Positions 3 to 57,614 of a stretch of DNA of 64,000 bases are shown here, in pieces. Under the pieces are notes generated by a model. The model was not told the DNA's origin, made no database searches, and saw only the letters and a program-made list of their open reading frames with translations. The position numbers were made by a program, and so were the translations under genes. Position 1 is the first letter of the stretch, and each line of letters begins with the position of its first letter. Source of the DNA: an uncultured Myxococcales bacterium (GTDB lineage Bacteria > Myxococcota > UBA4151); contig CAXGWI010000005.1 of the NCBI GenBank assembly GCA_964013405.1, positions 1-64,000 on the forward strand. Direction: 5' to 3'.

Positions 3-998
3 ATCGCCCTTGATGGTGATGGAGATCGCTGGTCTGAGTCCTGCTCAACAGCGACCCATGGCTTAAGTCATTGCAGCACTGAGCGCCCCGCGGAGGAGGG
101 TTGGCAGGGCGGCGAGGCCACGGTGGCGGCGTGGCCCGGGACCTTGGCGGCCCAGGTTCACTGGGGTGAGCGGGCCGGACTCATCGCCTTTCAGCGCCAC
201 GCCAACCGCATCGCATGGTACGATCTGCGCCGGCGCCTGGAGCCCTGCAGCCCCAGCGCTGAGGGGCCCGGCTGCCCCGAGCCGGTCTGCGGCGATGGCG
301 AATTGCAGCGGGAGGAAGTTTGCGAGCCCGGCGCCGGCTGCAGCGATGAGTGCACCCTGGCGGAGTTGCCTGCTGGCGCTCCAGCGGCCGGTTTGGCCAT
401 CCCCTTTGCGCCAGCCACCTTTGCCACCGACCAGGGCGAGGTGCGCTTTCTGCAGGGCATCACCGTGAACCCGATGGTGACCTTGAAGGAAGTCGAGCGG
501 ACAACGGGGAATCAGCACTATGATAATTATGGCACATGGTATCACGATCGTGCCCAGTGCCGCCGCTGGGGTGGCGATTTGCCCAGCGAGCGCCAGTACG
601 AGTGGATCGCCACCGGCGGTGCGGGGCCTTTGGTCCGCCGCTACCCCTGGGGCGACAGCCCCCCCCAGCCGGCGAGCGCCATGTATTTAGGCGCCGATCT
701 GCGCAGCAGCCGAGCGGGCAGCCACTGGTTAGGCACCAGCGTGGAAGGCCTCGCCGACTTGGCGGGGAGCTTTGAGACCAGAGGACACTGGGTGCTCGAC
801 GATAGCGGCAGCGCCCCTTCGGGGATCGCACCCCAGCGGGGGCCCCGGGCCTCGCAGAATTCCGCTCCCCCGAAGAAAGGGGGCTCGAAGACTCTGGGGA
901 TTGATCAACTGCCCTCCGGGGCTCGCTTCACGAGCTTCAACCGCGACACCAGCAACCACGGTGTGGGTCGTTGTGTGTGGTCTGTCGTTTCTCCCTGA
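3..998 (+). CDS. DGR target protein, 5'-partial: Myxococcus Cys-rich repeat plus FGE-sulfatase/C-type lectin-like C-terminal domain carrying the VR
   Basis: Frame is open from base 3, so the gene starts upstream of the window. It has a CGDGELQREEVCEPGAGCSDEC repeat and FGE-like motifs W..C...GGDLPSERQYEW, RRYPWG, GLADLAG, KKGGS and G.GRC. Confidence 0.9.
   Translation: MALDGDGDRWSESCSTATHGLSHCSTERPAEEGWQGGEATVAAWPGTLAAQVHWGERAGLIAFQRHANRIAWYDLRRRLEPCSPSAEGPGCPEPVCGDGELQREEVCEPGAGCSDECTLAELPAGAPAAGLAIPFAPATFATDQGEVRFLQGITVNPMVTLKEVERTTGNQHYDNYGTWYHDRAQCRRWGGDLPSERQYEWIATGGAGPLVRRYPWGDSPPQPASAMYLGADLRSSRAGSHWLGTSVEGLADLAGSFETRGHWVLDDSGSAPSGIAPQRGPRASQNSAPPKKGGSKTLGIDQLPSGARFTSFNRDTSNHGVGRCVWSVVSP
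909..995 (+). repeat. DGR variable region (VR)
   Basis: Matches the reverse complement of 2614-2700 at 77/87 nt and encodes the last 29 residues of the target, LPSGARFTSFNRDTSNHGVGRCVWSVVSP. Confidence 0.97.
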
Positions 999-1008
999 GC
1001 CTTGATGG

Positions 1009-1031
1009 GTCGTCCGCCGGGGGCGGACGAC
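1009..1031 (+). other. GC-rich hairpin/cruciform downstream of VR (DGR target-recognition element)
   Basis: Perfect 10-bp stem GTCGTCCGCC / GGCGGACGAC with a 3-nt GGG loop, 10 nt after the target stop codon. Confidence 0.85.
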
Positions 1032-1045
1032 GCCAAAAAAAAAGC

Positions 1046-2002
1046 TTAGCGGCAGCGCCCAAGGAGCCCCCGGCCTGCCGCCGCTCGGGAGCCCGATTGG
1101 GCCTTCAATTTGCCCCATCGCCGGCGCCGCTTGCTGTTGGCTCGCAGGGGCCGATCTCGCTGCACTAAATAACCAAGAAAGGCGATCGGCTCCGAACTGG
1201 GGCACAAAAAGGTCTTGTTCAAGTTCGGCCGGAGCCGAAGTTTAGCCAATTCCACTTCGATCTCACGATGCAGATTGATGAGGTCCGCTTTCGAACCGCC
1301 AATCAAGAGGTCGTCGACATAGCGAACCCAAGGGAGGCCAGCCGCCTCGATCCGCCGATCAACAGGCATCAGATACAGGTTGCCGAAATGCTGGCTGGTG
1401 AGGTTGCCGACGGGCAGGCCATGGGGCCGAAGGCAGTCAAACAGGCTGTCATCACCAAACCAATGTTGCACTCGCTCGGGGTTGCGACCGTGATCGATGA
1501 TGCAATCCATGACATCGAGATATTGACGATCTTTGATGAGGCGGCGGAGTTGCGCCTTCAGCAGTTCGTGGTCGAGACTACCAAAGTACTTTTTGATGTC
1601 GAGTCGCAACACCCATGGATGGCGCTGAACCAGGCGCCGCGCCCTGCGAAGACCGGCATCCACACCCAGACCCCGGCGATTGGCGACGCAGCCCGATAAA
1701 AGCCTACGCTCAAGTAAAGGCTCGAAAGCGCCACAGAGAATTTGGTGAACCACTCGGTCACGATATGGCGCCGCGCTGATCCAGCGGGGTTTGGGATCGA
1801 GAATGTGAAATTCATAGGGATCACTCGGGCACCAGATACCGGCCGCTAAATCTTCTCGGAGCCGAGCCAGTTCGTCACCCAAGCGGGTATGAAAGCGGAG
1901 CACGCCTTGCTGGTTTCGCTTGCCCCTCCGGGCCCGTTGAGCCGCTTTGAGGAGTTGGGGCCACTCCAAGGCCCACGACAATAAGCCCTGGACTCGCCTC
2001 AT
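1046..2002 (-). CDS. DGR reverse transcriptase (318 aa)
   Basis: RT motifs PKPRWI, YRDRVVH, LRLDIKKYF, GLPVGNLTSQ (the SQ variant typical of DGR RTs), RYVDD and FLGY. ATGA overlap with avd at 1999-2002. Confidence 0.96.
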   Translation of the reverse strand: MRRVQGLLSWALEWPQLLKAAQRARRGKRNQQGVLRFHTRLGDELARLREDLAAGIWCPSDPYEFHILDPKPRWISAAPYRDRVVHQILCGAFEPLLERRLLSGCVANRRGLGVDAGLRRARRLVQRHPWVLRLDIKKYFGSLDHELLKAQLRRLIKDRQYLDVMDCIIDHGRNPERVQHWFGDDSLFDCLRPHGLPVGNLTSQHFGNLYLMPVDRRIEAAGLPWVRYVDDLLIGGSKADLINLHREIEVELAKLRLRPNLNKTFLCPSSEPIAFLGYLVQRDRPLRANSKRRRRWGKLKAQSGSRAAAGRGLLGRCR

Positions 2003-2346
2003 GAACGAGATTGAATCGATCGGCGCCAGCCACCGAGTTGTCGACCGATTTCGGCAATCTCCGTCGCTGCGTAACCGTACTGCCGTTGCGATAATGCCCG
2101 CAGGTCCATGGCCATATGGAGGAGCAAGCGCAGTTCATCCAAGTGCTCATCCGCCTTCGCTAAAGGGCGGTCCAGTCGTTTGGCATGGCGACTGCGAACC
2201 AGGGCCAAACAGAGTTGAGTGCCGGCGGATTGCAGTCGCTCACCCAACTGAAACCGCAAGCAACGGTCGAACTGGACAGCGTGTCGAGTCAGCCAGAGGT
2301 TGAGCTGGTAGCTTCGATCGAGGATGGGAAGGGAAGGGTGCTGCAC
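1999..2346 (-). CDS. avd: DGR accessory variability determinant (Avd, four-helix bundle), about 115 aa
   Basis: LPILDRSYQL..WL, RFQLGERL, LSQRQY and EIGRQLGGW are Avd-like. GTG start at 2346 has AGGAG 7 nt upstream, so the ORF-track start at 2403 is probably too long. Confidence 0.92.
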   Translation of the reverse strand: MQHPSLPILDRSYQLNLWLTRHAVQFDRCLRFQLGERLQSAGTQLCLALVRSRHAKRLDRPLAKADEHLDELRLLLHMAMDLRALSQRQYGYAATEIAEIGRQLGGWRRSIQSRS

Positions 2347-2613
2347 GCGATGACTCCTGGGCGTTAAAAGAGACCGATAACCACAGGCAAATGGCCGAGC
2401 CACTCGCTCTGCTGTAAAACAAAAGACCCCCGGACAAGGGCGCTCGGCCGCGATTGCAGCCTACGAGCCCCGACGTCCGAGGAGACCCGCTAAAGCGAGC
2501 CTGATTTGCTCCGGTGCCGATGGGCACCGAACCTGCGAGAGCGAGCGCTGAACCTCGACTTGGATTCGCCCCACAGCCTTAACCATGGGACCTCGACCGA
2601 CTGTCGAGGGCCT

Positions 2614-2700
2614 GGGAGAAACGACAGACCACACACAACGACCCACACCGTTGTTGTTGTTGTTGCGGTTGTTGTTCGTGTTGCGAGCCCCGGAGGGCAT
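2614..2700 (-). repeat. DGR template repeat (TR), non-coding RNA template
   Basis: Minus strand reads ATG CCC TCC GGG GCT CGC AAC ACG AAC AAC AAC CGC (AAC)x5 GGT GTG GGT CGT TGT GTG TGG TCT GTC GTT TCT CCC. It is an AAC-rich copy of the VR. Confidence 0.97.
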
Positions 2701-4139: not shown

Positions 4140-5561
4140 GTGCCAGCCCTGAGGTTTCACGTGCTTGCTTTGTCGCTCCGCCTTGTTTCGGTTTGGGCGC
4201 TGATCGGTCTCAGCGCCGGTTCCGCGTGGGCGAGCCTGTGCTCCAACGACGCCCAATGCAGCCGAGCCTGGGAGCGTTGCCTTTCAGGCCACGGCATCTC
4301 CAGCCAATGCGGCCCCGAGCCCAAGCTGCTGAACTACAAATGGCAACTCATCGGTGAAAGCGGCAGCAACTGTGGCTTTACCGAGACCGTCCGCCTCACC
4401 GGCAATTATGGCGAATGCACCACCGACAGTGATTGCAGCGACGACCGAGTCTGCGCCCAGGGATTTTGCCGCCAAGAACGCTGCGTGGGCCGGGTCAGCT
4501 ATTATGTGGATCCGGCCGGCAGCGATGATTTTTCGTCGGCGGAGCGCAGCAAATCAACCCAAGCGGTGGAAGATGCCATGCGCAGTTGGAAGCTGGTGCC
4601 CTGTACCGTCTGGGACGCAGCCTCCCGAGACGTGCCCGACAACATGACCTGGAGCGCCGCCAACGATGGCCTCAACAAGTTCTTCTTCATGGAGGAGGGC
4701 TTTCGGGGCCTGGGCGGGCCCAGCACCCTGGGCATCACCGTCTCCCACTTCCAAGGGGGCGGCTCCCCCACCAGCGACGCCGACATCGTCTTTAACGGCC
4801 AAGATCACCGCTGGACCAGCCGGGACGCCGGCAGCGGCAGTACGGATATTTTTTCCGTCGCTCTGCACGAGATCGGTCACTTTTTGGGCCTGGGTCACCC
4901 CTGTGAACTGGCCCAAGGGGACTGCTCCGTGGACGCGGTCATGAACCCCACCTGGAGCGGCCAGCCCGAAGTGGGCCCCCGCCCCAGCGATGCTCTGGGC
5001 GTCTGCGAGCTCTATCCCGGCGTTCGCCCCCCGGTGGACGACGGCAGCATGCGCTTGGGCGAGCCCTGCACCACCGATTGCGAATGCGCTTCGGGGATCT
5101 GCCGCTACGGCCAATGCAGCCGTCGCTGCCGCATCGATGACCCCTGCCCCCAGGCCGGCGGCACCAAATGCGTGCTGGCCCGCAACGGGGAAGGCCTGTG
5201 CATGAGCCCGGTCTTCGTGGGCGAAGGCCAAGCCAAATACCCCCTGGGTGCCCAGTGCTCCCCCCGGGAGGAGCACAAGTGTGAAAGCGGTCGATGCACC
5301 TTTGTCGACATCCGTGGAGTTCGCTATGGTCTCTGCACCACCGCGTGCTCCGATGATGCCGACTGTTCCCCAGGTACGGTCTGTCGGGACGGCAGTTGTC
5401 TCTTAGACGACCAGGTGGCTGAGCCCTGCACCTCGGGACCCGATCCCGTGGATCCAGGCGAGGGCTGCTCCTGCCAAGGGAGCGGCTCGGGTCTGGCCTT
5501 ATTGATGATGGGCGGCGCGTTGTTTCTGCGACGACGCCGCGAGAGGAGTTCGTTCCCATGA
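4140..5561 (+). CDS. Matrixin (M10) zinc metalloprotease with Cys-rich repeats and MYXO-CTERM-like anchor
   Basis: Signal peptide, HEIGHFLGLGH, Met-turn AVMNP, and a C-terminal GCSC-hydrophobic-RRRR tail. Start is uncertain. Confidence 0.88.
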   Translation: MPALRFHVLALSLRLVSVWALIGLSAGSAWASLCSNDAQCSRAWERCLSGHGISSQCGPEPKLLNYKWQLIGESGSNCGFTETVRLTGNYGECTTDSDCSDDRVCAQGFCRQERCVGRVSYYVDPAGSDDFSSAERSKSTQAVEDAMRSWKLVPCTVWDAASRDVPDNMTWSAANDGLNKFFFMEEGFRGLGGPSTLGITVSHFQGGGSPTSDADIVFNGQDHRWTSRDAGSGSTDIFSVALHEIGHFLGLGHPCELAQGDCSVDAVMNPTWSGQPEVGPRPSDALGVCELYPGVRPPVDDGSMRLGEPCTTDCECASGICRYGQCSRRCRIDDPCPQAGGTKCVLARNGEGLCMSPVFVGEGQAKYPLGAQCSPREEHKCESGRCTFVDIRGVRYGLCTTACSDDADCSPGTVCRDGSCLLDDQVAEPCTSGPDPVDPGEGCSCQGSGSGLALLMMGGALFLRRRRERSSFP

Positions 5562-6109
5562 GAAGTCTTTTGCTGTTGAGCAGCCTTTGTGTGGCCAGCG
5601 CCGCCCAAGCCACCGTCGTCCTGAAAATGGACCGGGCCGAGATGACCCAGATGAGCGATGACGTGCTGATGGTTCGAGTCGGTGCCCAGCGGGTGGTGGA
5701 AGAACAACCCGGCGCCCTGGTGACCCTGACCGATCTGGAAGTCCTCGAAAGCTTCAAAGGCAAGTACGAGGCCGGCGACACCGTGCTCTTGCAGCAAGCC
5801 GGCGGGGTGAAGGGTGACTGGGTGATGCACATCCCCGGCAAGAACACCTACCGTTTCGGTGAAACTTTGGTGCTCTTTTTAAATCGTCACCGAGACCGGG
5901 TGGTGCCCGTGGGCGTCGGCATCGGCCGCATGGTGGTCGAGGGGGAAGGCGACAGTGCCCTGTTGAAGGAAGAGTACGGTGATGTGGCCTTCGCTGAGCG
6001 TAACCCCAAAGGGAAAATGCGCTTCATGCACGGACCCCCGCCGAGCAAGCCCGTGAAACTCAGCGTCTTTCGCCGCTGGATCAGCAGTCTCTTGGAGGGC
6101 TCGCGCTGA
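5558..6109 (+). CDS. Secreted hypothetical protein resembling the N-terminal domain found on or next to myxobacterial matrixins
   Basis: Signal peptide ending AQA, then the pattern TVV..M...EM...SD...V.V, LKG-like, Q.GG and GE.LVLFL. Overlaps both neighbouring genes. Confidence 0.7.
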   Translation: MRSLLLLSSLCVASAAQATVVLKMDRAEMTQMSDDVLMVRVGAQRVVEEQPGALVTLTDLEVLESFKGKYEAGDTVLLQQAGGVKGDWVMHIPGKNTYRFGETLVLFLNRHRDRVVPVGVGIGRMVVEGEGDSALLKEEYGDVAFAERNPKGKMRFMHGPPPSKPVKLSVFRRWISSLLEGSR

Positions 6110-8097
6110 TGCGTCTTCTCCTCGTCATGACCGCCTTAAGCCTCGCCACCCCGGCGGCGGCTTGGCAGGCGCAGATCGGCAAGTGGAGCCTCGATGGCTC
6201 GCCCAACATCGCCTACCGCGTGAACACCCGCGGGGCTCCCGGCATCGCCGGCGACTCGGATCTGCAAGCCATTCGAAACTCCTTCGACAGTTGGAGTGGT
6301 GTGAGTTGCTCCACCATCAACCTGGTGGAGTCTGGGACCACGAACAATTTACCCAACGCCCGCCGGGACAACGTGAACAATGTTTGGTTTGAAACCCGTG
6401 CCAATGCTTGGAGTTATGGCTCCGGCACCCTGGGCATCACCGGGACCTCCTTCTCGGGCTTTGGTTGTCGGGGCAATGGTCGGCCCGCTCGGGATTGCTG
6501 GATCGTCGATGCCGATGTGCAGTTCAATGCGGTGCAACACGCAGACGGCTGGAGCACCAACGGGCGCGGCGGCTTGGACGTGGAGTCCATCTCCGTCCAT
6601 GAGATCGGGCACAGTCTCGGCCTCGATCACCCCTGCGAAAACTGCACCGTCGATGCGGTGATGACCCCGTCGTATGTGGGCTATCCCTTTCGCTATCCCC
6701 GCCAGGATGACACCAACGCCGTTTGCAGTCTTTATCCCGGTGAGCGGGGCGGCCTCGGTTGGGGCTGCAACCGAGACTCCGACTGCAATTCCCGTATTTG
6801 CCTGGATGACGGTTCCAACGATTACTGCACCGTGACCTGTGGGAACTGCCCGGACGGCTACGAGTGTCGGGCCGACAATGGTCGCAATGTCTGCCAACGG
6901 GCGGCCGCTGGCAGTGGCGCGGCCCAGCAAGGCGAAAGCTGTGCTGGCGGTCGGGCCTGCGGACCGGGCCTGCTGTGCCTGGGCGATCAAAACGACGCCA
7001 CCTGCTATGCCGAGTGCGACCGGGGCAATTGCGAGGCCGGCTTTATTTGCGAAACCTTCTCATCCAATGGGCAAAACATCTCCATTTGCTTGCCCGGTGG
7101 CACCACTGCTGAAGGGGAGCCATGCGATTCGCTGTATGCCTGCGCGGCGGGCCTGGAATGCGCCCCTGTGGGTCGTAGCTATGTTTGTGCCAGAGGCTGC
7201 CGGAGCGACAGCGATTGCAACGAGCGCGAGAACTGTCAGGAGTTGACCCGGCCCGGCATCGACACGGTCCAGGTCTGTGTGGAGTCCAACACCGCCCTCG
7301 AAGGGGAGAGTTGTCAGCGTAAGCGTTGCGCCGATGGTCTGACCTGCTTGAGTGATGCGGGCGAACGGCTTTGCTTTCGCAACTGTCGCAGTCGGGCCGA
7401 CTGCAGCTCGGGCCTCGACTGCATCGAGATCAGCGATACGATCTCCATCTGCTATGCCAACAACTGCACCGAAGACCGGGACTGCGAGCGGGGTAAAATC
7501 TGCCTCGAAGGCAGTTGCGTGGACGAGACCGGTGGCTGCCGAGCCGATACCGAATGCCGCCGGGGTGAGCTCTGTGAAAACGGTGAATGCACGCCCTTCG
7601 AAAGCAATGGTGATCTGCCGGACAACGAACGCTGCGCCGACGATGGCGACTGCGTGTCGGGTCGCTGTGCAGCCATTGGCTCCACTCGGGTTTGTCGCCC
7701 CGGCTGCGATCGCCGCCTGGGGCACTTCGAATGCCCCGAGGGCTTTGGCTGCATCCCCGACGATGAAGGCAATGGCTATTGCGAGCGCGGCGCCGACGAA
7801 GGGGGCCAAAGCATCGGTAGCCCCTGCAGCAGCGCCATCGAATGCCGCCAAGGCATCTGTGGCAGCGACTGGGGCTTTGGTGGCGAATGTCTCACCTGGT
7901 GTGGCGAGAACTTCATCTGTCCCACGGGCTATCTCTGCGATTCGGCCAACAACCCCATGCCCGGGCTCTGTGTGCCCGAAGGGGGCGGTGTCGCCCCCGG
8001 TCTGGCCTGTGCCTGTGAGGGCACGACACCGGACTTCTGGTTCATGGGATTAGGACTGCTCGCAGTGCTCGGTTGGCGTCGCCGCCGCTCAGCCTAA
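6109..8097 (+). CDS. Matrixin (M10) zinc metalloprotease with long Cys-rich region and MYXO-CTERM-like anchor
   Basis: HEIGHSLGLDH, AVMTP Met-turn, many C..D.DC repeats, ACAC...LGLLAVLGWRRRR tail. Confidence 0.9.
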   Translation: MRLLLVMTALSLATPAAAWQAQIGKWSLDGSPNIAYRVNTRGAPGIAGDSDLQAIRNSFDSWSGVSCSTINLVESGTTNNLPNARRDNVNNVWFETRANAWSYGSGTLGITGTSFSGFGCRGNGRPARDCWIVDADVQFNAVQHADGWSTNGRGGLDVESISVHEIGHSLGLDHPCENCTVDAVMTPSYVGYPFRYPRQDDTNAVCSLYPGERGGLGWGCNRDSDCNSRICLDDGSNDYCTVTCGNCPDGYECRADNGRNVCQRAAAGSGAAQQGESCAGGRACGPGLLCLGDQNDATCYAECDRGNCEAGFICETFSSNGQNISICLPGGTTAEGEPCDSLYACAAGLECAPVGRSYVCARGCRSDSDCNERENCQELTRPGIDTVQVCVESNTALEGESCQRKRCADGLTCLSDAGERLCFRNCRSRADCSSGLDCIEISDTISICYANNCTEDRDCERGKICLEGSCVDETGGCRADTECRRGELCENGECTPFESNGDLPDNERCADDGDCVSGRCAAIGSTRVCRPGCDRRLGHFECPEGFGCIPDDEGNGYCERGADEGGQSIGSPCSSAIECRQGICGSDWGFGGECLTWCGENFICPTGYLCDSANNPMPGLCVPEGGGVAPGLACACEGTTPDFWFMGLGLLAVLGWRRRRSA

Positions 8098-9501
8098 GCG
8101 TTCACGAGCCCAAGCCGCCGCTCGCTTGCCGTGGAGTAAGGCGTCTTCCATGGCGCTGTACTCCCAGTTGCCGTAGCGCCCCGCGCTCAGGACCGACTGG
8201 GATTCCAGCCAGCCGACCAGAAGGTCCCGTGCGGCACCATGGTGGTCATCATTGAGCACATAGGCGTGGGCGATGGACTCACCCCAGCACTCGAGGATGG
8301 AGTCTGGACCGTCGATGAGGCCGGCCTCGGTGAGCCCCGTCGCCACGGCATCGAAGTGATCCATGGGGTCAAAGCCTCCCCGGTGGGCGAACTCCACATA
8401 GAAGTTGCGGGTGGCACCATCGGTCATGTTGGGCTCCACCGCGGAGAAACTGCCCACCCGGTAAAAGGGAAAGCGGGCTTCGGGGAAATAGGTCCAATGG
8501 GGCTGTCCGGCCCCGTCCCATGGACCCTTCTGGTCGTGATTGCTGCCTTTGGCCAAGACATCGAGATGGGCCACAAAGGTCGACTGCAGCCGTGATCTCG
8601 CCTCAGCCACCGCCTCGGGCAGCGGCGCGACCCGAGCGGCCAAATCGATGGCGACGGGCAGGGGGAGGCTGGTGAGCAGGGTTTGATAATGGGTCCAGAC
8701 CCCATCGGCTCGTTGTACCCGCTTGTTTTCGAGGTCGATGGCCGTGATCTCGACACCCAACTCGATGGGTGCATCCGTCGATCGCCGCACCGCATCGGCC
8801 AACTCTTGAATCCCCCGGCCCGAGGGGGGGTAGAGGAAGTGGGCATTGTAACCCAGGGCTTCCCGGGAGGCCCCCACCGCACCGGCGATCACATCCTCGA
8901 CTTTTGGCACCGGGATGTATCGGTCGCACCAGCCGGCGCTCAATTCTCGCGGGTGGGTGGTCCAGATTTTTTGATTGTAGGGCACCATGAAATGCTCGGC
9001 GATGCCGGCGCCGAATTTTTGCAGGATCCAGTCCTCAAAGGTCTCCGGCTCAGGGCGCGTCCGCGGGGCATCGCTTGATTCTAAATCGTGAAGACGGGCA
9101 TCGACGAAGCCTTGGAGGCACTCCCTCGCAACGGTCGGCGGCAAGCCGAAGGTGTTGGCCTGAAAAGGGTAGAGGGTGTAGACGCCATGGCTGAAAATCC
9201 GCGCCTTGCGGTCGTGTTTTTGCAAGGTGAGTCCCGGCAGTTTCGGCACCCATTCCAACATGTAGGGATCCCGCAAATGCAGCCAGTGGCCGGTGATGTC
9301 GAAGCGTGCCCCTTGCCGTTCTCGGGTCCGGGCTTTGCCCCCCACTTGGTTTAAGGATTCGAGGACACGGGCCCCTTCTCCGAAGTGGGCAGCCGCCGAC
9401 AGTCCGGTCAAGCCGGCACCTAAAATCAAAAAGGGCTGTTGATCCAAGGGTCGACCTTTGCTTGCTAAGCGGCCAGCGCCCTGTAGAACAAAGGCAAGCA
9501 T
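8089..9501 (-). CDS. FAD-dependent oxidoreductase (protoporphyrinogen oxidase / UDP-galactopyranose mutase-like superfamily)
   Basis: ILGAGLTGLSAA, VGG..RT, FDITGHWLH, YNQKIW, GRYGNWEY..ME. Start is uncertain. Confidence 0.82.
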   Translation of the reverse strand: MLAFVLQGAGRLASKGRPLDQQPFLILGAGLTGLSAAAHFGEGARVLESLNQVGGKARTRERQGARFDITGHWLHLRDPYMLEWVPKLPGLTLQKHDRKARIFSHGVYTLYPFQANTFGLPPTVARECLQGFVDARLHDLESSDAPRTRPEPETFEDWILQKFGAGIAEHFMVPYNQKIWTTHPRELSAGWCDRYIPVPKVEDVIAGAVGASREALGYNAHFLYPPSGRGIQELADAVRRSTDAPIELGVEITAIDLENKRVQRADGVWTHYQTLLTSLPLPVAIDLAARVAPLPEAVAEARSRLQSTFVAHLDVLAKGSNHDQKGPWDGAGQPHWTYFPEARFPFYRVGSFSAVEPNMTDGATRNFYVEFAHRGGFDPMDHFDAVATGLTEAGLIDGPDSILECWGESIAHAYVLNDDHHGAARDLLVGWLESQSVLSAGRYGNWEYSAMEDALLHGKRAAAWARERLG

Positions 9502-9526
9502 CCCGCCAAGCACCCGAGGACGTGAA

Positions 9527-55190: not shown

Positions 55191-57614
55191 TCATTCGCCA
55201 TGGGCCGAACGGGTCTCAGCGCTAATCGCATGATCCCAAAGAAGCACCGCGTCGAGATCGCCGGTAAAGGCTCGCTCTAAGCAGGCTTCATCGGCGCCAC
55301 AGCCACCCATGCGTAGAGGTGCTACATTGTTCCTGAGGGTGCCTGTTGCTGGGGCAAAGCCCGCATTCTGGCCCCGCACAAACAAGCTGAGACCCTGGCC
55401 GTCATAGACCGTGCAGAGTTGATTCCACTGGCCGAAGGAGACCGGCATGGTGCCATCGACACGGACCTGACCTTCAAGGGTGGCGATGCTCACCCAGGGG
55501 CGTTGATTACTGGGTTCGATGGCCAGGCGATAGGAGCCCCCCTTCTCGACCACGATAAAGCGCTCTCGCTCCTGCTGGGCCAAGGGGCGCACCCAAGCGC
55601 AAAGGGAGAAGGTATCAAAGCCATCGAGTCGGTCATGATCGGCGATCTCCACATAAGCTCCATCTTGGAAAGCCAAGGCGCCGGCAGGCACTTGGCGCCG
55701 ATCCGCCACCATGGCCGCACCCTGGTTGATGCCGTGGTGCTCATTGCCAGAGGAATCGAGAATATCACCGTCCATGGGATAGCAGGCCATGCTGCCGAGA
55801 CAGGCGGCCCCTGAACGGCAGGTGTTCGAACAAAAGTCATTGTCCTCGTCGTTACCATCATCGCAGTCCTCAACACCGAACCAGATGATCCCATCGCCAC
55901 AGGTCGCCCTTAGACAAGCATCGGTGCAGGCGTCTTCGTCGCCGTCCTGGCCGTCATCACATTCCTCGCCGGCGAAATCATCGAGGATATTGTCGCCACA
56001 GACCGGCTCGCTGCAGTCTCGGCGGCAGGCATCTCGACCTTCTAGGTTGCCATCGTCGCAGGCTTCGTCGTGGTCGACGACGCCATCGCCACACGCCGGG
56101 CGTCGGCAATCGGGACGACAGCCGTCTGTAGGATCTTCGTTACCATCATCGCATTCTTCATCGTGATCGACGCGACCGTTGCCACAGGCTGCTAACTGAC
56201 AGGAGTTGCGACAGCCATCGCTGTCCACGTCATTGCCATCGTCACAGCCCTCGTAGCCGAGTTCACCAGCGCCCCGATTGGTGCGAAGAATTCCATCGCC
56301 ACACCGGGCCCGTCGACAGTCTCGGGTGCAGTCATCGCCATCTTCGTCATTGCCATCATCGCATTCTTCGATCCCGGCCCGCACGATGTTGTCGCCGCAG
56401 CGGGCGGCGACGCAGTCAGTGGTGCAGCCATCGCCGTCGACGCCGTTGCCATCGTCGCATTCTTCGACGCCGGCCCGGACATGGCCGTCGCCGCAGCGGG
56501 GCAACTCGCAGCGAGGCGTACATTCATCGCCGCCTTCCCGGTTGCCGTCATCGCAGAACTCCCGGCCCGGGTGGAGAATTCCATCGCCACATTCGGCTTC
56601 TGCACACTGGTTGGTGCAGTCATCGGTGTTGACTCGATTGCCATCATCACAGGCTTCGTAGCCGATCTCGTTGTCGTTCAGGTCCTGCCGCACGAGCCCA
56701 TCGCCACAGCGGGCAGAGATGCAGTTGTTGAGGCAGCCGTCGAAGGGGTCATCGTTGCCATCATCGCATTCTTCCCCTGGTCCTCGTAGACCGTCGCCAC
56801 AGGCCTCGAGTCGGCAGGTGAATGAGCAGCCATCGCCGCTAAAGGTGTTGCCGTCGTCGCATTCCTCGAAGCCCCGTTCACCGGCCTCGATGTCCGTCCG
56901 TAGAAAGCCATCGCCACATCGGGCCGGGCTGCAATCGTTCAAGCAGCCATCCACATTGGTTAAGTTGCCATCATCACAGCGTTCACCTTCGTCGATCACC
57001 CCGTCACCGCAGGGGGGCAATTGACAGGCCTCATTGCAGTCCTCGCCCCCGTCACATCCTTCACCGGGTTGCACCGTGCCATCGCCGCAGCGGGCCCGCT
57101 GGCACTGACCGTTGCAAAGGTCTTCCTCGATGAGATTTCCGTCATCGCATTGTTCGCTGCCCGGGCTGCCCTCGTCCAAATCCAGTCGCTGGATCCCGTC
57201 GCCGCAGCGGGCCACAAGGCATCGATGGGTGCAGGCGTCGTGGGCCTCCGCATTGCCATCGTCGCAGGCCTCGTAATCTGGCTCGCCTTCAACCCGGTCC
57301 AGCCGCAGGACACCATCCCCGCAACGGGCGATGTGGCAACTGTTCAGGCAGTCGTCCGCGTCGTTGCTGTTGCCATCGTCGCAGGCTTCAAAGCCTTCAT
57401 CGCCCTCGAGAAGGTCGCCTCGGCGAATCCCATCGCCACAGCGAGCCCGCTGGCACTGGTCCGTGCAAGCATCGTCGGCCACCGTGTTGTCGTCGTCACA
57501 TTCTTCGCCGGAATCCAGCAGTCCATCACCACAGACGGGGTCGGGGTCGAGGACGGCGGGAGCCACCTCACAGCCCATGGCGATGAAACCCAAAATCAGA
57601 GAGATACGAGCCAT
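55191..57614 (-). CDS. Lipoprotein with 17 Myxococcus Cys-rich repeats (DUF4215-like) and C-terminal LamG-like domain
   Basis: Lipobox AMGC, 17 CG[DN][GN]...E.CDD...C...C units, then D.SGN.HHG, F...AWVRP, W......YDG, F.G.LD. Confidence 0.9.

Follow-up and report, generated by a model that had tools for sequence, protein, structure and literature searches.

A DGR with a predicted lectin-fold target, likely the tip of a stalked surface lipoprotein, in a marine Myxococcota lineage

In a DGR, a reverse transcriptase (RT) and Avd copy the RNA of a template repeat (TR) with errors at adenines, and the cDNA then replaces the variable repeat (VR) of a target gene. The closest described counterparts of the locus reported here are the category b targets, in which a CLec1 VR lies in an FGE-sulfatase-like domain, as in Treponema denticola TvpA (PMC5758913). 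The same survey describes architecture B, with the TR-avd-RT order as in Pseudanabaena (4 occurrences in its supplementary table), differences in VR length next to AAC runs, and Ig-stalked category d targets, among them a DUF1566-Big_1-DUF1566 protein of Photobacterium angustum and another with six Ig domains (PMC5758913).

The window analyzed here is a stretch of 64,000 nucleotides at the start of contig C5 of genome G000, a 3.9-Mb assembly of 244 contigs that is 94% complete and whose nearest named relatives carry the title Myxococcota bacterium; the class comprises six genomes in one family. Its first bases resemble category b and TvpA in a C-terminal VR within a predicted FGE-type CLec domain, an AAC-rich TR, an invariant 3' segment, a GC hairpin and avd. 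The locus differs in several respects. Its target and cassette lie on opposite strands and face each other, its TR is short, with 19 adenines, and its domain has diverged too far to reach the Pfam cut-off and closes with GxxRCVW in place of GFRC. The tip would also stand on an Ig stalk of ~1,100 aa, which is not found among the category-b compositions examined (PMC5758913).

Several other systems resemble the locus in part. Legionella LdtA and the category d targets are surface lipoproteins or Ig-stalked proteins with a DGR-varied CLec tip; those tips are of the CLec2/DUF1566 type and their cassettes of other types, whereas the tip of the window target is FGE-type and its paralogues bear different ones. 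In invasin and intimin a CLec-like domain caps a chain of Big_1-type Ig domains, an arrangement found in homologues of the window gene and likely for the gene itself. Its tip, in contrast, is FGE-type and DGR-varied, and it would resemble these adhesins in working rather than belong to them. The MAT fibres of Bdellovibrio form a family of large surface proteins that have a body in common but differ in their tips; one tip (Bd2740) adopts a C-type lectin fold like that of Mtd and takes part in prey entry (PMC10769870). They are trimeric beta-prism fibres, whereas the stalk of the window family models as Ig-like sandwiches; the likeness is offered as an analogy, not as homology, and the MAT paper names DGRs only in the title of a reference (PMC10769870). 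In Bacteroides, a cellular DGR varies the ligand-binding residues of adhesive surface structures, the Type V pilus adhesins (bioRxiv 10.1101/2024.11.15.621889); these are gut pilus subunits, whereas the present case would be a single-chain stalked lipoprotein of a free marine Myxococcota lineage.

DGRs have been reported as rare in free-living marine lineages (PMC8144416). The string 'Myxococc' has no match in the supplementary table of Wu 2018 (PMC5758913) and is absent from the main text of Dore 2024, the dataset of which holds one Myxococcota (Bradymonadia) RT (PMC10907252). A literature search, which left subscription literature mostly uncovered, returned no paper on the stalked-lipoprotein family or on a DGR-varied adhesin in Myxococcota, and none describing a DGR that tunes prey range in a bacterial predator. 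The DGR mechanism is thus known, and the target architecture is a set of known parts combined in a new way.

Cassette and variable repeat

A complete DGR is contained within bases 1-2706. Its elements are as follows.

910..995 (+): variable repeat (VR), identified by its repeat match to the TR, with 19 mutable positions in codons 309-319
960..995 (+): invariant 3' 36-mer, IMH-type, encoding the last strand; identical in the TR, with no listed differences in the run contigs
1009..1031 (+): GC-rich 10-bp hairpin with a G loop, 3' of the VR and of the target stop (z = -4.0; 0 of 200 shuffles as stable)
1046..2002 (-): DGR reverse transcriptase, 318 aa, YVDD; RVT_1 E 2.5e-14 (above cut-off), with homologues
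1999..2346 (-): avd; NF033474 E 1.6e-20, bAvd E 1.2e-9, 57% to the Avd of G002
2347..2613 (-): IMH* end and TR-avd spacer, containing short blocks also kept in G002
2614..2699 (-): AAC-rich template repeat (TR), the 86-base repeat of the VR, with the same nine adenines in contigs of runs X5 and X7

Because TR, avd and RT are read on the minus strand, in the order TR, spacer, avd, RT, the cassette points toward the target. The layout is IMH-type: the invariant 36-mer is common to VR and TR, the sequences diverge past the stop, and the hairpin follows the VR and not the TR. The RT shows 51% identity to that of the sister-genus genome G002, and the family RTs formed a clade of their own, with a support of 100/100, in a tree of 20 RTs, 18 of which were chosen from 120 listed matches. 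The nearest named RTs among the matches listed (40–46%) belong to Saprospiraceae, Thiotrichales, Acidobacteria, Laspinema and Gemmataceae. The avd product scored 73 bits against the NF033474 cut-off of 80, and its bAvd match also fell just below the curated cut-off. Its likely start is a GTG at 2346 after AGGAG, while the listed reading frame begins at 2403. At its other end, the avd stop overlaps with the start of the RT.

Of the five family relatives searched, one (G002) has an orthologous TR-avd-RT cassette. Short blocks are kept in the TR-avd spacers of both cassettes (2347-2613 and L032:1-270) and are candidate TR RNA elements on account of this conservation. A search of 900-2900 gave no sigma-70-like promoter, a metagenome scan with the RT found no relative, and a viral scan found no viral relative; ESM Atlas matches were all below 0.9 and serve as leads only. 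An RT identical to that of the window is on record on another contig of 145,795 bases. A second, unrelated reverse transcriptase with a YTDD motif is encoded elsewhere in G000 (C131:4961-5566, minus strand, 440-aa frame), and further DGR-like RT and avd pairs occur in the phylum sample (L003 in G027:C2 and L005 in G033:C1).

Comparison of the VR with the TR (910-995 against 2699-2614) revealed nine mismatches in 86 bases, all opposite TR adenines; given 19 adenines among the 86 bases, the hypergeometric P is 2e-7. A reading made earlier from sequence alone had held that the target ends in a VR, and this pairing confirmed it. It had also counted 11 variable residues, of which ten stood: the codons with TR adenines are 309-313 and 315-319. 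The eleventh, codon 303, was dropped: it has a TR adenine but is unchanged in all three of the additional alleles that reach it. With nine AAC codons and one of ACG, ~1.5e11 protein variants are possible (15^9 x 4, from the codon table). Differences at 902-908 in the run contigs fit a short 5' extension of the TR, the end of which may reach ~2706; codons 301-302 are possibly a 5' fringe beginning at 903.

Natural variation was followed in sequencing runs. Of the 19 listed for the stretch, 18 bear a marine or seawater label, all but one contain a small share only, and none is an RNA dataset. Seven runs were compared with the window (X1-X5, X7 and X9 are cited here), four of them across 850-1060. 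Contigs covering most of the TR came from only two of the four, X5 and X7; these carried exactly the nine TR adenines and continued into the TR flanks, and the TR is therefore unchanged there. Three more VR alleles were obtained, one contig each from X2, X7 and X9. Within 910-995, 12 of the 13 differences of the X2 allele fell at TR adenines (P 4e-9), as did 11 of 11 listed for X7 (P 3e-9; 15 of the 17 differences of this contig are shown) and 13 of 13 for X9 (P 3e-11). Together this amounts to 36 of 37 listed differences, the sole exception being position 943 in run X2. When the four VR alleles were compared by hand, no pair shared more than four of the ten variable residues. Strains and paralogues are indistinguishable in these data since each allele is a single contig (depth 2.5–3.9) from a different sample. 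The TR is fixed while the VR differs at TR adenines across marine runs; the element has thus been diversifying in nature, as seen between samples rather than within one population, which bears out the earlier proposal of a diversified protein. The VR of the homologous protein P0001 is one codon longer.

A search of the genome with the invariant 36-mer, which the sequence-only reading had proposed, located it only in the VR and TR of the assembly. No remote target was found in G000 by blastn, by the 36-mer with up to eight mismatches or by a scan for NNC runs, and in an adenine-masked scan the next best site had 27 non-A mismatches. The lack of remote targets is unproven because the assembly is 94% complete and the tail of one lipoprotein head (on contig C23 or C56, see below) is missing from it.

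The lectin-fold tip

The target frame is open at its 5' end because the window begins at base 1 of contig C5. The following features were assigned to it.

3..998 (+): 3' part of the DGR target gene, 331 aa; an open frame with homologues
273..359 (+): single degenerate Cys-rich repeat (TIGR02232/DUF4215-like), residues ~91-119, assigned from sequence and from canonical copies at the same place in G004:C175
378..992 (+): predicted FGE-type C-type-lectin domain, residues ~126-330, with conserved C186 and C324; AlphaFold, Foldseek and phmmer
468..560 (+): second variable patch, residues 156-186, low GC, from comparison with P0001

The motifs LPSERQYEW, YPWG, DLAGS and KKGGS, from which a divergent FGE/C-type-lectin domain had been proposed, are present in the frame. 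The proposed fold was supported by structure prediction, whereas Pfam FGE-sulfatase remained below its cut-off (E 0.015); phmmer matched the domain to ToxD (E 1.6e-7). An AlphaFold model of the tip from an 81-row alignment had a mean pLDDT of 68, with 80–90 over most of the core and values below 50 at the Cys-rich repeat and at residues 150-174. In a wide structural search of 48,161 chains, the top match was the DGR protein TvpA (Z 14.7, rmsd 3.2, 180 residues aligned), statistically tied with PorKN (Z 14.5); further down the ranking were other FGE-fold proteins, Mtd (10.4) and TaqVP (9.2). The C-terminal domain of the target is accordingly modeled as an FGE-type CLec with the VR at its C-terminus. 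GFRC is the usual FGE end motif and is present in most FGE rows of the alignment. In the model the variable codons fall in a loop before the final strands (pLDDT ~73), a segment that forms the exposed binding site in solved DGR proteins (PMC6328139). The catalytic triad of human FGE is S333, C336 and C341 (PMC6328139); no such Ser-Cys-Cys triad is found in the target, which has no Cys between residue 187 and C324. The AAC codons are mutable to Ser or Cys, and some variant could regain catalytic residues.

For the Cys-rich repeat, the type named earlier was upheld by the canonical copies in G004:C175, while the copy in the window is single and degenerate, with no Pfam DUF4215 or TIGR02232 match. 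Its best pairwise match to the protein at 55191-57614 was E 0.003, and a six-frame scan of the genome counted the motif 1271 times. In that protein, 15 CG[DN]G repeats were counted and two CGDN copies bring the number to the 17 reported before. The assignment stands because two canonical DUF4215 copies occupy the matching place in the homologue G004:C175; a TIGR02232 match was also found in the paralogue on C60. The repeat is a minor linker.

Residues 156-186 form a second variable patch, with 18 differences from P0001 in 31 positions, a GC content of 0.52 against 0.69–0.71 for the rest, and an insertion in run X2. No template for the patch was found in the assembly; the best candidate match was a run of lysine codons and was rejected, as was an equivalence with insert 1' of TaqVP, which sits between the two helices. 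The patch has possibly been swapped by recombination.

The target is also the more variable part of the element outside the VR: in runs X1-X3, two comparisons over 151 bases gave 13 and 9 differences, where each RT or avd piece gave 0–1. Run X4, whose RT and avd pieces differ at 5 and 9 positions, represents a strain that is further removed. Both this excess and the untemplated patch 156-186 would fit an arms race, in which the tip would be a phage receptor or decoy whose DGR variation lets the cell escape or trap phages. Such a role has been raised for membrane-bound cellular targets, with the added argument that random binding may be costly in the open ocean (PMC8144416). We consider it unlikely, since the variation is concentrated in the CLec ligand-binding segment, a displayed site in solved DGR proteins (PMC6328139), and since paralogues bear other binding-type tips on the same stalk. 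Diversified binding by the tip is the reading we prefer.

Stalk, lipoprotein head and paralogues

P0001, 83% identical to the target and itself partial, extends ~240 aa further upstream. Two full-length homologues, G002:C12 (a frame of 1724 aa) and P0127 (1684 aa), are 37% identical to P0001 across 520 aligned aa, contain Big_1 matches (E 7e-11 and 9e-11) and match a lipobox pattern at their start. From these homologues the full target gene would be ~1,700 aa long. A rival possibility is that the frame encodes a short stand-alone protein, starting at the in-frame GTG at 123, or is a fragment of a broken gene, in either case without a stalk; in its favor, the start of C5 shows no 55-base overlap with any contig end. 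The frame is, in contrast, open to base 3, P0001 continues upstream of it, and the homology to full-length proteins covers that upstream part, which leaves a stalkless protein scarcely credible.

A model of the stalk, the first 1170 mature residues of G002:C12, was built from 22 rows and had a mean pLDDT of 77 and a pTM of 0.38. It is nearly all beta and consists of a chain of beta-sandwiches, about eight by eye. Among Ig chains it matched intimin (Z 11.8) and invasin (Z 10.6), with InvE and FdeC within 10.6–11.8; these are generic Ig matches, intimin being equaled in score by a phage neck protein and by domains of beta-galactosidase. Whole-chain TM values from Foldseek were uninformative for the long stalk model. 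No Pfam match to a beta-barrel translocator was found in G002:C12 or P0127, which have a lipobox instead. We infer that the window gene shares the ~1,100-residue Ig-like stalk of its homologues, which would be its main feature and was out of sight for the sequence-only reading.

G000 encodes about seven giant lipoproteins of 1,700–2,200 aa that are built on a common Ig stalk but differ in their tips. Three of the genes are whole (C49, C50 and C60), and the rest of the family is in pieces (C97+C233, C178, C221, C56 and C23). The tips are propeller-like in C49, RCC1 in C60 and CLec in the window gene. A stalk profile gave 5–14 matches in each of the six class genomes; these are pieces rather than copy numbers, and the profile was built from the same genomes. 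None of the six members scanned received an NCBIfam family name. Among the best 150 of 1.84 billion representatives, a profile search returned seven close members (P0122-P0127 and P0156) and two short fragments. By these sequence searches the family is small and lineage-bound.

Lipoprotein heads were scored at the conserved Cys with a PROSITE-type lipobox pattern, which matched 10 of 13 family heads and missed C56, C60 and C178. The C56 head is one residue off the strict lipobox (Cys at -3), while its G001 orthologue and the C23 head match. Within G000, C97 pairs with C233 (98% overlap) and C178 groups with the type of C221; with these accounted for, the heads on C56 and C23 remain for the window tail. 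Both are lipoprotein-type and both fall in the CLec-tipped clade, with rough support. Before the C56 head lie RseP, which adjoins argJ and matrixins in three of three sister-genus argJ regions, and an M16 peptidase, found in one of these three regions; gene order around argJ is locally rearranged between genera. In the window, a Pfam scan placed argJ and matrixins past the cassette, near where C5 begins. At 4140-8097 a small gene is flanked by two matrixin-like proteases that have MYXO-CTERM-type tails, and such genes adjoin argJ in three sister-genus genomes. The window tail would thus belong to the C56 head or else to that on C23, synteny favoring C56. As its own N-terminus is unassembled, lipidation of the window protein leans on homologues, elimination and synteny. 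The earlier suggestion of a secreted or surface protein agrees with the lipobox at the start of the full-length homologues and with the lipoprotein type of both candidate heads.

These data also bear on whether the target might be a cytoplasmic or periplasmic antigen sensor of a conflict system, a role that has been put forward for clade-5 DGRs in multicellular bacteria (PMC10907252). The nearest named RTs resemble cellular aquatic clade 5, and a Ser/Thr kinase gene lies upstream of the C56 head. The homologues have a lipobox and an Ig stalk instead, neither they nor the scanned genes beside the cassette contain NACHT/STAND, vWA-MoxR or TIR/peptidase effector domains, and the downstream neighbors are argJ and matrixins. 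We regard a sensor as very improbable.

The sister genus offers separate evidence on the nature of the target. In G002, a lipoprotein head on C98 follows an RCC1 gene, the 48%-identical counterpart of which lies directly before carA in G003. A VR-bearing tail, L058, also lies directly before carA, has no cassette in its 3.6 kb, and matches the TR end of G002 at 45 of 46 bases, the single difference being at an adenine. The carA/RCC1 context shared by this head and tail identifies the sister-genus target as a lipoprotein, and the target is probably remote from its cassette, as judged from the contigs. Another protein, P0123, in which a target runs in frame into sequence after the G002 TR, is most readily explained by a join made in assembly across the shared segment, not by a real fusion.

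TraA is a myxobacterial kin/self recognition protein, and the tip might likewise be a kin or self tag, with VR alleles that define recognition groups. A Myxococcota host, the surface location, the Cys-rich linker and the high allelic diversity would suit such a tag, whereas rewriting among ~1e11 variants would be expected to break matches between siblings. Moreover, neither the surroundings of the cassette nor the end of the C56 head region revealed a gene for a TraB-like partner, and the target gene seems dispensable at the carA locus, where G003 has no counterpart between the RCC1 gene and carA. On balance a kin tag appears rather improbable.

Among the CLec-tipped tails of the family, runs of NNC codons end L058 (13), L059 (17), G004:C16 (14) and the start of G003:C80 (8), and G004:C175 ends in a broken run. 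A hairpin accompanies each of these five tails, with z from -1.7 to -3.7 and two of the five weak. The tail of G002:C12 has neither NNC run nor hairpin; paralogues have therefore gained or lost targeting. The genome of G004, which is 85% complete, yielded no RT.

Some further observations were made at these loci. G004:C175 is a second CLec-tipped paralogue of G004, with a canonical GFRC end and a weak hairpin (L034:145-300), and P0124 is a close variant of it that differs in that segment. Direct repeats of 70–130 bases bound G002:C12 and the next gene (L031:425-509, 6179-6321 and 9380-9511). By eye they resemble a tRNA or tmRNA 3' end and are possibly tandem, att-like integration sites, a reading left unconfirmed by ARAGORN, which found no tRNA or tmRNA beside five loci. 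L059:1-1390 is AT-rich, foreign-looking DNA that switches to the target gene near 1400, and the contig is probably chimeric.

Function of the varied tip

Taken together, we think it likely that the DGR rewrites ten codons of a CLec-fold tip carried by a surface lipoprotein of ~1,700 residues with an Ig stalk, and that it would thereby vary what the protein binds. RT and Avd would make a cDNA of the TR RNA, with errors falling at adenines, and this copy would replace the VR of the target. The protein would consist, in order, of a lipid-anchored head, about eight Ig-like modules, a middle module, one Cys-rich repeat and the tip, which would be displayed on the outer surface. A varied tip would let the cell change which cells or surfaces are bound. 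As the family shares the stalk and differs in its tips, the DGR would add fast variation onto slower tip swapping.

For the ligand, prey or other cells are our best guess, a plausible one that falls somewhat short of an even chance; particles or glycans are the more doubtful candidates. Prey is favored only by the phylum, by analogy with the MAT fibres of Bdellovibrio and by Tad genes. Tad secretin and TadE genes are present in G000; they are also found in non-predators, and no tested feature marks the organism as a predator. A broader proposal, which we offer tentatively and hold to be less probable than prey or other cells as such, is that this marine Myxococcota class hunts with a set of giant Ig-stalk lipoproteins whose tips can be swapped. 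A DGR would have been taken up to hypermutate the lectin tip in one subfamily and would serve as a prey-tropism switch, a cellular counterpart of Mtd in the Bordetella phage, while paralogues gained and lost targeting.

The role of DGR-varied cellular proteins is largely open, and the present case offers a concrete architecture of lipid anchor, Ig stalk and variable lectin tip, along with natural alleles, a fixed template and a sister paralogue without targeting signals. If the ligand is prey, the DGR would tune prey range in a bacterial predator.
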